Shown piece by piece: positions 2,684-6,733 of a stretch of DNA of 60,035 nt. The stretch lies in the NCBI GenBank assembly GCA_000998135.1, contig LCCV01000009.1, positions 1 to 60,035 on the forward strand, written 5' to 3'. The stretch comes from Parcubacteria group bacterium GW2011_GWA2_42_14. Lineage in GTDB: Bacteria > Patescibacteriota > Minisyncoccia > Sungbacterales > GWA2-42-14. The number at the start of each line of letters is the position of its first letter. Position 1 is the first letter of the stretch. Made by a program: the position numbers and the translations under genes. The notes beneath the pieces were generated by a model. It worked only from the letters and a program-made list of their open reading frames with translations. It had not been told where the DNA came from and ran no database searches.

Positions 2684-3033
2684 TCATTTTTGGACTATAA
2701 AAAACCAGCATATATTAGCTGGTTTACTTTCGAACCGAATTTCTATTGTTATGCAATTTGTATAATTTTGCACAAATTAAGAGTATAACAATGTATAGTA
2801 TAGGAATTGGGTATAGTATTAGATTAACTATGGTATAAATTTTTCTGCCAAATGGTACATGAAAAAAATCACAGATTGATGATTCTGTAGAAATTCCTAC
2901 CAAAATACAAAGTAACAAACCTAGTATATATAACACAAACAAAGTGATTAGCATGAAAGTCTCCTGTTTTTTGTGCAAAGTTCTTATTAGAGAGTAGCAA
3001 ATATATCAATAAATGTCAAGAGTCCAAAAATGA
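2684..3033 (+). other. 23S intervening sequence IVS-1 (helix-tip insertion, domain I)
   Basis: Flanked by perfect 19-bp inverted arms gagcactcatttttggact (2678-2696) and agtccaaaaatgagtgctc (3021-3039). It lies between the conserved ccgaatggggaaacc and gaaacatctcagta blocks. Confidence 0.85.
2724..2954 (-). CDS. small membrane protein (76 aa, two hydrophobic segments), antisense to 23S
   Basis: AGGAG (2961-2965) sits 6 nt upstream of the ATG at 2954. TTGACA (3014-3019), 17 nt, TACTCT (2991-2996) form a promoter. The terminator hairpin accagc/gctggt plus T-run (2698-2723) sits right after the stop. The track ORF start at 2978 lies upstream of the SD. Confidence 0.6.
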   Translation of the reverse strand: MLITLFVLYILGLLLCILVGISTESSICDFFHVPFGRKIYTIVNLILYPIPILYIVILLICAKLYKLHNNRNSVRK

Positions 3034-3087
3034 GTGCTCGGAGCGTACCCGCTGAAGTGAAACATCTCAGTAAGCGGAGGAAAATAA

Positions 3088-3203
3088 AAAAATGCTTCGC
3101 ATTTTTTTCGCAGAATAAGCAGACAGTACGCTGAATTACGCAGAATTTTTCTGCGTATTTCTGCGTTTCTTCTGCGAATTTCTGCGAAGGGAATGCGCAG
3201 CGC
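3088..3203 (+). other. 23S IVS-2: ORF-less periodic-word hairpin (CGCAG / CTGCG words)
   Basis: Inserted between ggaggaaaataaa and attcccttagtagcggcgagcg. The arms are cgcagaa... and ttctgcg repeated every 10-11 nt around acgcagaatttttctgcgt. Confidence 0.75.
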
Positions 3204-3714
3204 ATTCCCTTAGTAGCGGCGAGCGAAAAGGGATCAGCCTAGATTGAGCATTTTTCAGATTATATCAAAAAATTTGCTTGAAGTTATAAGACATGATTAT
3301 GGTTTAATCCGAGAGGGAAGCGTTATATTAGAAGAACGGTCCTGGAAAGGCCGGCCAAAGCGGGTAATAGCCCCGTATTCGAAAATTTAAACGCACTCTT
3401 TATCATGTTCTTGAGTACTGCCCCGTATGAAGTCTGGGCAGGAAGTAGGCGGAACTAGACCGCCAAGGCTAAATACTCGATGTCACCGATAGTGAACCAG
3501 TACCGTGAGGGAAAGGTGAAAAGTAGCCCGTTTAGGGCAGTGAAATAGTACCTGAAACCATACGTTTACAAGGAGACAACGCCCGAAACCCGCAAGGGTT
3601 TTTAGGGCTATGTCGTGCCTATTGAAGAATGAGCCAACGAGTTCTTGGATTCTACTCGTTTAAGTGCCCAACGGCACAAAAGCATAGCGAAAGCGAGTGT
3701 TAATAGCGCGTTTT

Positions 3715-3998
3715 AGTTCTTAGTTTTTAGGTGTCAGATTTTAGATTATTAAAAAAACCAGAAAGTGTCTGGCTTAGTTAGGCATATCGCCTTTGATTAT
3801 GATCACATACAAGGCGTTACCGAAAGTTAAGATTGTTGCAGATAGGAAAAGAACAAAAAATCCGTTGATGAGATATTCGATCGGGATGCAGATCATTCGT
3901 GGATTCTCCAATGAAAACGAACTATGCTGATATATTAACAAATATAATTTAAAAGTCAAGTAGTCTAGAATCTGGCACCTATCAACTATGAACTATAG
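3715..3998 (+). other. 23S IVS-3 (long-stem insertion, domain II)
   Basis: Lies between gcgaaagcgagtgttaatagcgcg and aaagacccgaaacc. The imperfect arms are agttcttagtttttaggtgtcagattttagatt and agtctagaatctggcacctatcaactatgaact. Confidence 0.75.
3774..3896 (-). CDS. 40-aa hydrophobic peptide, antisense to 23S
   Basis: MICIPIEYLINGFFVLFLSATILTFGNALYVIIIKGDMPN. GGAGAA (3904-3909) is 7 nt from the ATG. TTGACT (3954-3959), 16 nt, TAATAT (3932-3937) form a promoter. The terminator is ccaga/tctgg plus T7 (3751-3773). The track start at 3959 would lie upstream of the predicted TSS. Confidence 0.55.
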   Translation of the reverse strand: MICIPIEYLINGFFVLFLSATILTFGNALYVIIIKGDMPN

Positions 3999-4406
3999 GT
4001 AGAATTCAAAAGACCCGAAACCTCGTGAGCTTACCATGAGCAGGTTGAACCCCTGAGAAATCAGGGGGGAGGACCGAACCGGTTGGTCGTGCAACGCCTT
4101 CGGATGACTTGTGGTAAGGAGTGAAAAGCTAATCGAACGAGGAAATAGCTGGTTCTCTCCGAAATAGTTTTTGGACTAGCCTCGGATCACGCTCCGCGGT
4201 ACATGAGGGGAAGAGCCCAGACCATAAACTAAGGTCCCCAAATCTATGTTAAGTGGCAAAGGTGGTGGAAATTCTCAAACAGCAAGGAGGTTGGCTTAGA
4301 AGCAGCCATCCTTTAAAGAGTGCGTAACAGCTCACTTGTCAAGAGTTTCTGCGCCTAAAATTTAACGGGGCTAAACATAGTACCGAAGTTATGGGTGTCG
4401 TGCCTC

Positions 4407-4517: not shown

Positions 4518-5072
4518 AGGCACGACGCGGTAGGAGAGCATTTCAAACGCAGTGAAGGTTGACCCGCGAGGGCAACTGGAGTGTTTGGAAGAGAGAATGT
4601 TGGCACAAGTAACCACAAGACAGGTGAAAACCCTGTCCGCCGAAAACCCAAGGTTTCCTTGGCAATGCCAATCATCCAAGGTTTAGTCGGCCCTAAGGCC
4701 ATGGCGAAAGCCGTAACCGATGGACAGCTGGTTAATATTCCAGCACTGTTTTACGCATCGATGGCGTGACGGAGCAAAGTATATTAAGCATATTATTGGA
4801 TTTATGTTCGTGTCTTAAGGATTGAGCGTAGGCAAATCCGCGCTCGGGGGTTATGCCCGAATCCAAATGAAGCGAAAATCATGCGGGGCAACCCAATTGA
4901 AATTTAATAAAGCTTGCTTCCCAGAAAAACGTCTAAGATTATGCGTAAAGCAACCGTACCGGAAACCGACACAGGTGGGTTGGTCGAGTAGACTAAGGCG
5001 AACGAGTGAGTCTTCGTTAAGGAACTAGGCAAAAAAGCAGCCGTAAGTTCGCAATATGGCTTGCCCGGCACC

Positions 5073-5391
5073 TTTTGGATTATGACAAATAAAAAATGCT
5101 CCCCAAGAAGGGAGCGAATGCGAGAGGACTAACCCAATTTACCGGGGACTCTCGTAATATGAGGAATTTCAGCGATTACTTTGAGGAGTTTTTTTCCAGA
5201 ACCCCTTTTTGTGAGAAGTTCGCGGGCGATTTTATTGTTGTCTGCGTCATCTGCGTGGAAAAGATCTTCTAATTGTCCATTTCTATTTTCAATTATGTAT
5301 TGACAATTCATTAGATTTCTCCGCGGTAATGTGGATTGGAACTAACTCCAGCATAAGTTAAAATTATTATTTGTCAAGTCGTAATTCAAAA
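5073..5391 (+). other. 23S IVS-5 (helix-tip insertion, domain IV)
   Basis: Arms caccttttggattatgacaaata and tatttgtcaagtcgtaattcaaaaggtg lie between ccgtaagttcgcaatatggc and ggctgcaacaaaag...accaaaaacacag. Confidence 0.8.
5129..5311 (-). CDS. 60-aa hydrophilic protein, antisense to 23S
   Basis: GGAGAA (5317-5322) is 5 nt from the ATG. TTGACA (5373-5378), 16 nt, TATGCT (5351-5356) form a promoter. The terminator is gctccc/gggagc plus T-run (5092-5116). Confidence 0.5.
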   Translation of the reverse strand: MNCQYIIENRNGQLEDLFHADDADNNKIARELLTKRGSGKKLLKVIAEIPHITRVPGKLG

Positions 5392-5601
5392 GGTGCTGGG
5401 CTGCAACAAAAGTACCTCTAGCGACTGTTTACCAAAAACACAGGTCCCTGCTAACTCGTAAGAGGATGTATAGGGGCTGACGCCTGACCGATGCGGGAAG
5501 GTTAAGCATTGTTGTTATGGGATTGAGATTATATCAATGTTTTATAGCGCATGATGCCAAGCCCCCGTCAATGTCAGCAATAACTATAATTGTTCTAAGG
5601 T

Positions 5602-6352
5602 GAATTATGTTGCCTTAGTAAAATCTGGCTATATCGGTGAACACCTCATTATGCGAGACACATAGTGAGACAATACCGAGGGAAGTCGCCTGCTCAAATT
5701 TTTAAACTTTTATTTAAATTATTAAAAGAAAAACCCACACGGATTAAATCATGTGTGGGTGCAATCTATGAGGTTTGGGCTTAAACGAGCTTAAACTTTG
5801 TGCCTAAGTACCAGAATAGCCTTATCTCCTTTTTTTGACCTTGGAAGACCGTGAAGTCCAAATGGAGCCGTATCAAACTGGTCAACATAAAGCGGACTAT
5901 CATAAGAGCTTGGAATAAGGTCGCTCATTAACCGCAATGCTGTTACTTCCCTATCTGTGCGAGCAAACATTACGATTTTCAAAGATGGTTTGTTGACTCG
6001 AATTCGATATGACAGCCTCATGCCAATCCTCCTTTTAGGATAGTTGTGTTATGCTAACAATAGCATATTGAAAAAGAATTGTCAAGAGTTTAAAAATTTG
6101 AGCGGGTTGACCCCGTAGAGACTACACGCTGGATCGAGCACCTTTCATGTTCGGAATTTGTATGCGGTTTGCAAACATTACAGATGTTAAGTAACTGCAT
6201 CAAAAAATTTCAATGTGAGAAAGGTGCTCGAAAGATATAGTCCGAACTCCATGGCGACATGGAGAGCTAAGCAGAAATGACTTAGCCAGTAACATTCCGC
6301 GACTGTCCGCGTTAAGTCCGCGTATGTCTGCGGTTGTTATAGTAACAACATG
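5602..6352 (+). mobile_element. group I intron A at E. coli-equivalent site about 1931
   Basis: Exon joins as ctaaggt|agcgcaattcc (E. coli CUAAGGU|AGCGAAAUUCC). The 5' exon ends in U and the intron ends in G. It has the core element aagatatagtccgaac and shared blocks atatcggtg, ataccgagggaagt and accccgtagagact. Confidence 0.8.
5791..6021 (-). CDS. 76-aa protein of unknown function, antisense, inside a loop of intron A
   Basis: AGGAGG (6028-6033) is 6 nt from the ATG. TTGACA (6080-6085), 17 nt, TATTGT (6057-6062) form a promoter. The terminator is cccacac/gtgtggg plus T-run (5727-5760). The cassette is closed by the stem gctcaaatttttaaac / gtttaaaaatttgagc. Confidence 0.55.
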   Translation of the reverse strand: MRLSYRIRVNKPSLKIVMFARTDREVTALRLMSDLIPSSYDSPLYVDQFDTAPFGLHGLPRSKKGDKAILVLRHKV

Positions 6353-6529
6353 AGCGCAATTCCTTTTCGGGTAAGTTCCGAAGCGCACGAAAGGCGTAAC
6401 GACTGGAGGACTGTCTCAACGAAGAGCTCGGTGAAAATACAATGCCGGTGAAGATGCCGGCTACCTGCAGTTAGACGAAAAGACCCCGGGAGCTTTACTG
6501 TAGCTTGATATTGGGTCTAGGAACACCGC

Positions 6530-6733
6530 TTTTTCTACAAAATTAAAATGCCGCATAAAGCGGCAATGGATTAAACAAAAAATGGCCAAATGACGAGAGG
6601 AATAAGAAAAATTACCACTGCAAAAATTGTCATAGCATCTAGGACGATCATTTTCTATCCCCTCGCGATTCTTATAAAAGGCCTAAGAAAAGTTTAATCC
6701 AAAAGACATTTATTGTCAATGTTTGCAGAAAAA
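6530..6733 (+). other. 23S IVS-6 (helix-tip insertion, domain V 5' part)
   Basis: Arms caccgctttttctacaaa (6524-6541) and tttgcagaaaaagcggtg (6722-6739) lie between gctttactgtagcttgatattgg and gacagtgtctggtgggcagtttg. Confidence 0.8.
6571..6651 (-). CDS. 26-aa hydrophobic peptide, antisense to 23S (below ORF-track cutoff)
   Basis: MIVLDAMTIFAVVIFLIPLVIWPFFV. GAGGGG (6659-6664) is 7 nt from the ATG. TTGACA (6714-6719), 17 nt, TAAACT (6691-6696) form a promoter. The terminator is gccgc/gcggc plus T-run (6545-6564). Confidence 0.5.
   Translation of the reverse strand: MIVLDAMTIFAVVIFLIPLVIWPFFV

Follow-up and report, generated by a model that had tools for sequence, protein, structure and literature searches.

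Candidate antisense small-gene cassettes in the rRNA gene insertions of a Parcubacteria bacterium

The intervening sequences (IVSs) described in bacterial 23S ribosomal RNA (rRNA) genes, such as those of Leptospira and Coxiella burnetii, are excised by RNase III and have spread horizontally. Where a classical 23S IVS contains an open reading frame (ORF), it is encoded in the sense direction. The Coxiella ORF is one such sense ORF; it lacks its own promoter, is separated from its Shine-Dalgarno (SD) sequence by excision and probably goes unexpressed (PMC4990558). The rRNA genes of bacteria of the candidate phyla radiation (CPR) are rich in insertions; a 2024 survey reported them in 82% of CPR 23S genes, sorted CPR insertions into group I introns, homing-endonuclease carriers and "uncharacterized" sequence, suggested that IVSs may also occur in CPR, and mentioned neither antisense ORFs nor promoters (Tsurumaki et al. 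2024, PMC11270868). This study analyzed the 23S rRNA gene in a 60,035-nt stretch of the CPR/Patescibacteria organism Parcubacteria group bacterium GW2011_GWA2_42_14 (contig LCCV01000009.1, positions 1 to 60,035; the whole stretch is termed the window). At least 12 insertions were found in this gene, and five of these each carry an antisense unit, here termed a cassette, that comprises a predicted promoter, an SD sequence, a small ORF and a terminator between the two arms of the stem closing the insertion. These five elements probably belong to a widespread family of antisense mini-genes in CPR-like hosts, modular in build and exchanged horizontally, that are housed as cassettes in rRNA insertions removable at the RNA level; the CPR assignment is that of the window organism. 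A preliminary description of the locus knew of no published account of such cassettes, and we found no description of arm-bounded antisense rRNA cassettes in the literature searched; as far as found, the arrangement is undescribed.

The five cassettes all read on the minus strand in one order, namely arm, TTGAC(A/T), TAnnnT, SD, ATG, small ORF, intrinsic terminator and arm. The preliminary description had listed five complete units of this type, and every one of them was found in place. The TTGAC(A/T) box beside the 3' arm, the spacer of 16-17 nt and the TAnnnT box were present in 5/5, and the terminator scan returned a hairpin and T-run beside the 5' arm of all five, on the minus strand only. 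The distance between the GGAG-type SD sequence and the ATG, given earlier as 5-7 nt, had to be corrected to 6-9 nt. The -35 box lies 0-2 nt from the 3' arm in every cassette (in IVS-3, TTGACT is flush with the arm), and 57-62 nt separate its end from the ATG in 5/5. The inverted repeats closing the inserts are 18-24 nt long and 88-100% complementary, except that IVS-3 is closed by a stem containing G-U pairs, and the minimum-free-energy folds of the sense strand paired the ends of every insert with 17-27 pairs. BLAST mapping identified IVS-1, IVS-3, IVS-5 and IVS-6 as extra sequence in variable helices, absent from the rRNA of Escherichia coli. Hydropathy analysis agreed with the products proposed earlier: two predicted membrane segments in the 76-aa protein of IVS-1, one each in the 40-aa and 26-aa peptides, and none in the 60-aa protein and the 76-aa protein of intron A, which are hydrophilic.

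The IVS-1 cassette (2676-3041; approximately E. coli 130-178, helix 9 region) is closed by arms at 2676-2696 and 3021-3041 that are complementary at 21/21 positions, and its fold closes with 23 pairs. The predicted promoter (2991-3019) consists of TTGACA (3019-3014), 17 nt and TACTCT (2996-2991); AGGAG (2965-2961) stands 6 nt before the ATG of the 76-aa ORF (2724-2954), and the terminator (2702-2725) is a hairpin and T-run 2 nt from the 5' arm. The exact 76-aa protein occurs on 17 contigs in public collections. The IVS-3 cassette (3728-3982) lies in the helix 25 region (E. coli 533-668) between arms at approximately 3728-3750 and 3960-3982, and its fold closes with 27 pairs. The promoter predicted here (3932-3959) has TTGACT (3959-3954), 16 nt and TAATAT (3937-3932) with a TG before the -10 box, GGAG (3909-3906) stands 9 nt before the ATG of the 40-aa ORF (3774-3896), and the terminator scan placed the terminator at 3755-3775. 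The IVS-5 cassette (5063-5401; E. coli 1704-1770, helix 63 region) has arms at 5063-5086 and 5378-5401, TTGACA (5377-5372), 16 nt and TATGCT (5355-5350) as its predicted promoter (5350-5377), a 60-aa ORF (5129-5311) and a terminator at 5098-5115.

The fourth cassette (5689-6106, arms 5689-5711 and 6084-6106) occupies a peripheral loop of intron A, a putative group I intron of approximately 5602-6352. BLAST placed the break that it makes in the 23S gene precisely between E. coli 1931 and 1932; the Rfam model Intron_gpI scored 35.5 bits at 6040-6264, below its gathering score of 50. This position is one of the frequent insertion sites of CPR 23S genes, where the insertions encode LAGLIDADG_1 (PMC11270868). 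The predicted promoter of the intron A cassette (6057-6085) comprises TTGACA (6085-6080), 17 nt and TATTGT (6062-6057) with a TG before the -10 box, and is followed by AGGAGG (6033-6028), the 76-aa ORF (5791-6021) and a terminator (5736-5755). The IVS-6 cassette (6524-6739, arms 6524-6541 and 6722-6739) extends the helix 79 hairpin (approximately E. coli 2200-2210); it contains TTGACA (6719-6714), 17 nt and TAAACT (6696-6691) as its predicted promoter (6691-6719), GAGGGG (6664-6659), a 26-aa ORF (6571-6651) and a terminator (6549-6565). A sixth match of the scanner for arm-abutting promoters (TTGAAA at 6213, arms 6134-6146 and 6219-6231) was rejected: its arms form an RNA stem of 13 nt, the promoter match is weak and an ORF is lacking.

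The window cassettes are AT-rich, with a GC content of 0.28-0.38, and the expression signals might therefore be coincidental, TGTCAA-GAGTCCAAAAA and the hairpins being features by which the sense strand is processed or folded. The arms need RNA pairing under any reading, and the promoter scan as a whole was not enriched over shuffles (21 found, 17.2 expected), which is in keeping with coincidence. In the consensus promoter scan of 2300-11000, the three top predictions (10/12 matches) were cassette promoters, and a fourth cassette promoter was also listed. Only 39 copies of TTGACA occur on both strands of the whole 60-kb window, and its position 1-2 nt from the 3' arm in four inserts, along with TTGACT against the arm in the fifth, is thus not attributable to chance. 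A strict scanner demanding a promoter, an SD sequence, an ORF of 18-130 aa and a terminator detected four of the five cassettes within the rRNA gene (IVS-3 was missed) and one unit in the approximately 52 kb outside it; the near absence of the complete unit from the other 52 kb argues against coincidence, as do the TAnnnT box at 16-17 nt with an SD and an ATG at 57-62 nt in 5/5 and the one-directional terminators. Together with the strand bias of the ORFs and the use of the identical motif as an apparent operon promoter, both presented below, these results make a purely sense-strand or chance origin extremely unlikely.

The cassettes of IVS-1 and intron A have a common arm end, TTTTT-RR-ACTC, directly before TTGACA. 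The pattern TTTTTRRACTCTTGACA-N16-18-TANNNT was used to search the JGI metagenome collection, and matches were obtained at no fewer than 119 metagenome loci (L numbers designate individual loci here); among the 119 matches listed, 30 loci displayed 16S or 23S similarity, even though rRNA is a very small fraction of a genome. In 798 kb of retrieved DNA and the window combined, 30 promoters abutted an exact inverted repeat of 13-22 nt enclosing 146-495 nt. Three of these were window cassettes, IVS-3 and IVS-5 being missed because their arms are imperfect, and 27 lay in 25 metagenome loci among the matches listed. Again among the matches listed, 25 of the 27 metagenomic cassettes were in rRNA-similar loci, and all 25 were antisense to the rRNA; the remaining two (L112 and L118) were on short contigs without assigned context. 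A separate scan for complete expression units within rRNA spans yielded 16, antisense in 16/16, and two of them (L052:8587 and L079:3021) came from outside the pattern selection. Rfam detected small-subunit rRNA in L057 and large-subunit rRNA in L079 on the strand opposite to the cassette. The same pattern applied to viral contigs as a control returned 8 ordinary promoters, 0 of which had an inverted repeat abutting the -35 box. This recurrence supports one part of the interpretation in the preliminary description, namely that the elements are self-contained antisense expression units.

The metagenomic cassettes were located in 23S genes at helix 25 (the most frequent site), helix 9, helix 63, group I intron loops and the 3' spacer, and in 16S genes at approximately E. 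coli 446-517 and near 790. The intron loops have the flanks of window intron A (CTACGGGGTCA, arm, arm, GACTTCCCTCGG), which recur in L046, L052, L053, L072 and L098. Different sites in 16S and 23S genes share the inner arm ends (CAAATTTTTGGACTC); the outer parts of the arms, apart from the motif described next, are mostly site-specific.

An outer arm motif, CC(A/G)GCAC, was also observed at five rRNA sites, namely 23S helices 9, 63, 25 and 45 and one 16S site; it occurs in the window arms at 2676 and 5063, in L044 and L057, and in a GIY-YIG insert at helix 45 in L002. The recurrence of this motif suggests that whole arms move between sites. One 23S gene (L052) contains two cassettes, at 8552-8849 and 9322-9652, which have identical 19-nt arms (TTCCGTTCAAATTTTTGGA) and stand approximately 470 nt apart; their proteins are different (50 and 69 aa), with two predicted membrane segments each. 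A sense-strand transfer RNA (tRNA) gene (Rfam, 70 bits) was observed at 5252-5326 of L079, inside a metagenomic 23S gene between E. coli 1105 and 1186, where helix 45 insertions are sited.

A simple reason can be given for the antisense orientation. An intrinsic terminator in the sense orientation would truncate the rRNA, and on the simplest reading only the antisense orientation is therefore viable for a self-contained gene in an rRNA gene. Because the promoter and the terminator abut opposite arms, the predicted antisense RNA is confined to the removable part and would never pair with mature rRNA. The promoter itself recurs in another setting: a T-tract, ACTC, TTGACA, N17 and TAnnnT were found in the sense orientation 250-340 nt upstream of the 23S gene in L034 and L096, and the same T-tract/ACTC/TTGACA motif precedes a tRNA-16S-23S operon in L109. 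Judged by its sequence, the motif most likely represents a promoter type of stable-RNA operons, with a T-tract resembling an UP element, and co-regulation with rRNA is therefore favored over counter-regulation.

The cassette strand was also favored by the coding content. Of 31 cassettes, 26 had their longest ATG-initiated ORF on the cassette strand and 4 had it on the opposite one (Wilcoxon p = 5e-5); the cassette ORF, where present, mostly began downstream of an SD site, approximately 50-80 nt from the beginning of the -35 box. The products comprise 21-94 aa and are mutually unrelated except for the IVS-5 family; approximately 17/30 have a predicted membrane segment, and close to half are hydrophilic. 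No cargo protein matched Pfam, NCBIfam or PADLOC, and a Pfam search of the five window products found neither 23S_rRNA_IVP (PF05635) nor a homing-endonuclease domain (LAGLIDADG, GIY-YIG or HNH). At one 16S site, four loci (16S genes 89-97% identical where both contigs reach far enough) have identical arms and immediate flanks, and their interiors, which begin just past the -35 box and end shortly ahead of the distal arm, are unrelated. It is thus the arms together with the -35 box that behave as a constant frame, the interior behaving as exchangeable cargo.

An arm-bounded cargo of another appearance was observed at approximately 730-962 of L072 (minus strand); it resembles a structured RNA, with a long terminal stem, a T-arm-like GGTGTTCAAATCC and no convincing ORF. 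ARAGORN called no tRNA in the RNA-like cargos, including this one.

Cargo turnover was also evident among close relatives of the window organism. In one related population (L002), the IVS-6 site carries a short plain hairpin and the IVS-5 site an unrelated insert. In another (L005), the arms and TTGACA of IVS-5 are kept, and the interior is beyond BLASTN alignment. Given that L002 and L005 differ from the window in both the presence and the interior of cassettes, we conclude that close relatives acquire, lose and re-load their cassettes.

The preliminary description had proposed comparing ORFs between related insertions. The IVS-5 ORF is kept in L005 as a 61-aa ORF with the same ends, 33% identical to the 60-aa window protein (E = 2e-9). 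A search for homologues with the single IVS-5 sequence returned only itself, and a search with the two-sequence alignment returned only its two inputs; a HMMER profile of the two proteins, run against 1.8 billion representatives, identified a third member (P0008, 60 aa, E = 8e-6). The third member is a free-standing gene beside gltX, murG and ftsW, not inside an rRNA gene, and its layout is TTGACA, 17 nt, TATAAT, approximately 30 nt, AGGAG and ATG, followed by a terminator. The L005 homologue and this free-standing member indicate that the IVS-5 cargo is a genuine conserved small protein, now known from a family of three. Another profile match (P0007) was rejected as a family member; it is a 1289-aa repeat protein whose score was summed over 11 weak repeats. 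AlphaFold2 modeled the 60-aa family poorly (predicted local distance difference test [pLDDT] 55).

A second, truncated copy (…GAGYKLLKVIREDYKPIMY…) was observed downstream of the free-standing IVS-5 homologue, at 505-615 of L029; tandem duplication of the IVS-5 family thus occurs outside rRNA.

For the intron A ORF, a single relative was found, which is 89% identical and is present on eight short ENA contigs, L002 and L005 among them. The DNA of the relative's cassette is 95% identical, and its promoter, SD sequence, reading frame and terminator are intact. AlphaFold2 predicted a strand-strand-helix-strand-strand arrangement for the 76-aa protein with a mean pLDDT of 77, a fairly confident model for an alignment of two sequences. 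Foldseek comparison of this model with the PDB gave nothing below E = 0.1 and generic alpha/beta matches only.

Several results weigh against the reading of these elements as a family of mobile protein-coding cassettes. The -35 and -10 boxes were built into the pattern by which the metagenomic loci were collected, and the set unbiased with respect to the promoter consists of the five window cassettes. The comparison of the intron A ORF with its one relative was uninformative as to selection, the ratio of nonsynonymous to synonymous substitution rates being 0.55 (p = 0.33), and the ORF was conserved no better than its flanks. The hydrophobic window ORFs (IVS-1, 40 aa and 26 aa) had no detectable relatives in homologue searches that were aimed at the intron A and IVS-5 ORFs. 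No target-site duplication was found flanking the arms, and no recombinase or other mobility signature was found, integrase and attC not having been searched for. Four other CPR-like 23S loci, retrieved through a LAGLIDADG protein, contained zero cassettes, and the family is accordingly patchy. Finally, an ORF is lacking from a few cassettes (L075 and L079 at helix 25, L131 and L044), and the protein product is thus not the sole point of the design.

The cassettes without an ORF keep the promoter, the terminator and the arms, and they raise the possibility that the antisense RNA is itself the product and the ORFs are mostly incidental; the sense-antisense duplex would then recruit RNase III for removal of the insert, or head-on interference would tune rRNA output. 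The placement of the promoter and the terminator makes the antisense RNA match the removable part exactly, and a precedent exists in Helicobacter pylori, in which a promoter-driven cis-antisense RNA pairs with the leader of the 23S-5S precursor to form a duplex that RNase III cleaves (Iost et al. 2019, PMC6582327). An RNA-only function does not account for the SD sequence and ATG at a fixed distance behind the promoter in most cassettes or for the bias of long ORFs toward the cassette strand. The IVS-5 protein is conserved while its DNA has diverged past BLASTN detection, the intron A protein is predicted to fold, and the 17-27 bp stems formed by the arms themselves should suffice for RNase III. 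We consider an RNA-only function quite improbable.

The preliminary description had proposed a type I toxin-antitoxin pair, in which the hydrophobic peptides are membrane toxins and the pre-rRNA or the excised insertion RNA is the antitoxin. The peptides would be made when rRNA transcription falls or when the insertion is lost, resulting in addiction or in dormancy tied to ribosome synthesis. By sequence, the hydrophobic cargos could be toxins: three of the five window cargos and approximately 17 of approximately 30 overall have predicted membrane segments (26-76 aa), the 26-aa and 40-aa peptides fit the description of small hydrophobic peptides, and the 76-aa IVS-1 product fits it loosely. 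The geometry supplies a fully complementary and abundant antisense partner, the fully overlapping layout is shared with Ibs/Sib pairs, and the hypervariable, lineage-specific nature of the cargo recalls conflict systems. The excised IVS RNA of Coxiella has a half-life of approximately 4 min (PMC4990558), and an antitoxin RNA should be similarly short-lived. Against these points, the 60-aa protein and the 76-aa protein of intron A do not fit that description; hydrophilic cargos make up two of five in the window and nearly half overall, and a few cassettes have no ORF. No toxin family (Hok, Ldr, TisB, Ibs, Fst or others) was matched in Pfam, NCBIfam or PADLOC at E values up to 1. Co-regulation is suggested by the promoter motif, which is of the kind found in the sense orientation before rRNA and tRNA operons; the homologue of the IVS-5 cargo that stands free has no rRNA partner; and the incompatibility of a sense terminator already accounts for the antisense orientation. 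The variable presence of cassettes among close relatives is a weaker objection and is compatible with addiction. For these reasons, toxin-antitoxin function is not the general explanation of the cassettes, and we regard it as unlikely.

For the cassette family that we favor, the following model may be proposed. In the sense pre-rRNA, pairing of the arms would turn each insert into a closed hairpin, whether its site is a variable helix, a group I intron loop or a spacer, and the insert would then be cut by an RNase III-type activity in the manner of an IVS, be spliced out with the intron, or be tolerated. On the opposite strand, transcription would begin at a promoter at one arm and stop at a terminator at the other, the transcript spanning only the removable part; this orientation alone would be viable, as a terminator in the sense orientation would abort rRNA synthesis. 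The arms and the -35 box may serve as a docking frame between which mostly orphan small proteins, and occasionally a short RNA without an ORF, are exchanged, and a leader of approximately 30 nt with an SD sequence links the T-tract and sigma-70 type consensus promoter to the cargo. The cassettes probably spread by recombination on the highly conserved rRNA flanks or on the arms, possibly aided by the endonucleases of neighboring insertions. Convergent rRNA transcription probably modulates their expression by occluding the promoter and by giving rise to sense-antisense duplexes that RNase III attacks; the transcription, translation and excision of the cassettes, the way in which they move and their coupling to rRNA synthesis are what we infer.

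A bolder extension of this model is possible, though we hold it to be doubtful. It proposes that CPR rRNA genes host a modular cassette system in which an rRNA-type promoter drives hypervariable antisense small proteins, mostly membrane proteins, gated by rRNA transcription by means of promoter occlusion and of the pre-rRNA as antisense partner for RNase III, and that the cassettes are rRNA-coupled addiction, dormancy or conflict modules spreading through conserved rRNA flanks. Without that extension, the findings indicate that a sizeable class of CPR rRNA insertions consists of insulated antisense expression units in both 16S and 23S genes. If the cassettes are expressed, the single rRNA operon of these tiny genomes would be a hot spot for orphan membrane peptides, and CPR gene counts would miss a gene class hidden by rRNA masking. 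The conservation of rRNA may then be a landing pad for horizontal transfer of small genes, and convergence with the busiest promoter of the cell would be a built-in sensor of ribosome synthesis.

The host 23S rRNA gene lies on the plus strand at 2525 to approximately 9900, its 3' end being approximate (Rfam LSU_rRNA_bacteria, 1502.8 bits, and BLAST against E. coli 23S). Rfam identified a single bacterial large-subunit rRNA at 2525-7324 and a 5S rRNA at 10658-10777, and the conserved blocks found by BLAST match E. coli 12-2884 to window 2536-9881, which gives a gene of approximately 7.4 kb. The exact proteins of two cassettes are also encoded on NCBI MHQY01000036.1 (GCA_001820775.1) and on many groundwater metagenome contigs. 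The window belongs to a groundwater genome of the Rifle aquifer type. Public copies of the locus (NCBI MHQY01000036.1 and several ENA contigs) all contain 111 nt more of conserved 23S sequence at window 4190/4191 and 106 nt more, comprising L1-stalk helices, at window 6519, and the window has neither stretch. As every public copy has both, the apparent loss of E. coli 858-974 and approximately 2093-2200 is a property of the window and not of the organism. An ENA assembly (5964-7242 of L014) that appeared to be a variant 5' half of the gene was rejected as chimeric, a CPR 23S gene being joined at a conserved stretch to a proteobacterial 23S-tRNA-16S operon.

Other insertions in this gene differ in kind from the cassettes. 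A second class comprises eight hairpin-forming inserts with CGCGGA / TCTGCG units at a periodicity of approximately 10 nt (2436-2472, 3139-3187, 4423-4492, 6296-6333, 6952-7032, 7692-7737, 8741-8778 and 9193-9271), sited in the leader, helices (including helix 45) and intron loops; elsewhere in the 60 kb, such units form two weak clusters only. An insertion near the 3' end of the 23S gene (9489-9801, helix 98 region) carries a sense-strand GIY-YIG nuclease ORF at 9502-9804 (Pfam E = 2e-18). Its 26-nt arms (9489-9514 and 9776-9801) contain a TTTTTGGAT core common to the cassette arms, and the nuclease might be an in-trans mobilizer of the cassettes. A further sense ORF (7837-8382) matched LAGLIDADG_1 in the Pfam search that was used for the cassette cargos. 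A Lys/Glu-rich 67-aa sense ORF (7344-7547) lies in a group I intron loop between 15-nt inverted repeat arms (7287-7301 and 7534-7548), and neither promoter nor terminator was found for the two arm-bounded sense ORFs, those of GIY-YIG (9502-9804) and 67 aa (7344-7547). The next intron contains a 56-aa sense ORF (8864-9034), and the 23S-5S spacer contains sense ORFs of 71 and 55 aa (10012-10227 and 10257-10424); the ORFs of 67, 56, 71 and 55 aa have no family match and no obvious promoter.

The cassettes invite comparison with several known systems. At the RNA level they follow the strategy of IVSs and introns, to which they add an insulated unit of antisense expression whose cargo can be exchanged. 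Type I toxin-antitoxin pairs with overlapping antisense RNA include Ibs/Sib, and also Hok/Sok and TisB/IstR. In both these pairs and the hydrophobic cassettes, the mRNA of a small hydrophobic peptide is complementary to an RNA made from the other strand, and RNase III would be the effector expected. Unlike in those pairs, the partner would be an rRNA precursor instead of a dedicated small RNA, many cargos are non-hydrophobic, and sequence kinship with known toxins is absent. Integron cassettes and miniature inverted-repeat elements have conserved ends, exchangeable small cargo and inverted repeats at their borders, and in their conserved ends and exchangeable small cargo they are conceptual analogues of the rRNA cassettes. 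The rRNA cassettes differ from them in that each has its own promoter, the sites are restricted to the removable parts of rRNA, and no target-site duplication is evident in the flanks. Small proteins encoded within or opposite rRNA genes include yeast TAR1, opposite the 25S rDNA, and humanin and MOTS-c in mitochondrial rRNA genes. TAR1, humanin and MOTS-c overlap mature rRNA, and each is one conserved gene, in contrast to insulated, modular cassettes housed in excisable insertions.

The antisense RNA of H. pylori, introduced above, likewise covers a removable part of the rRNA precursor; it differs in overlapping the leader, in being non-coding and confined to one locus, and in being neither arm-bounded nor modular. 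The LAGLIDADG and GIY-YIG insertions of CPR (Tsurumaki et al. 2024, PMC11270868) share the hosts and genes of the cassettes, and one cassette sits in an intron loop, where endonuclease genes are usually placed. In contrast to the cassettes, the endonuclease ORFs of this locus are in the sense orientation, lack both promoter and terminator and account for their own mobility, whereas the cassette cargos are tiny, antisense and non-nuclease. The 23S IVSs with an ORF in Leptospira and C. burnetii (S23p / 23S_rRNA_IVP) resemble the cassettes in their insertion into variable helices, their long closing stem and the possible presence of an internal ORF. Unlike the ORF of the Coxiella IVS, the cassette ORFs are antisense, with a strong predicted promoter, an SD sequence and a terminator of their own, and their cargo is hypervariable and is not 23S_rRNA_IVP; unlike classical 23S IVSs, the cassette design also extends to 16S genes, intron loops and spacers.

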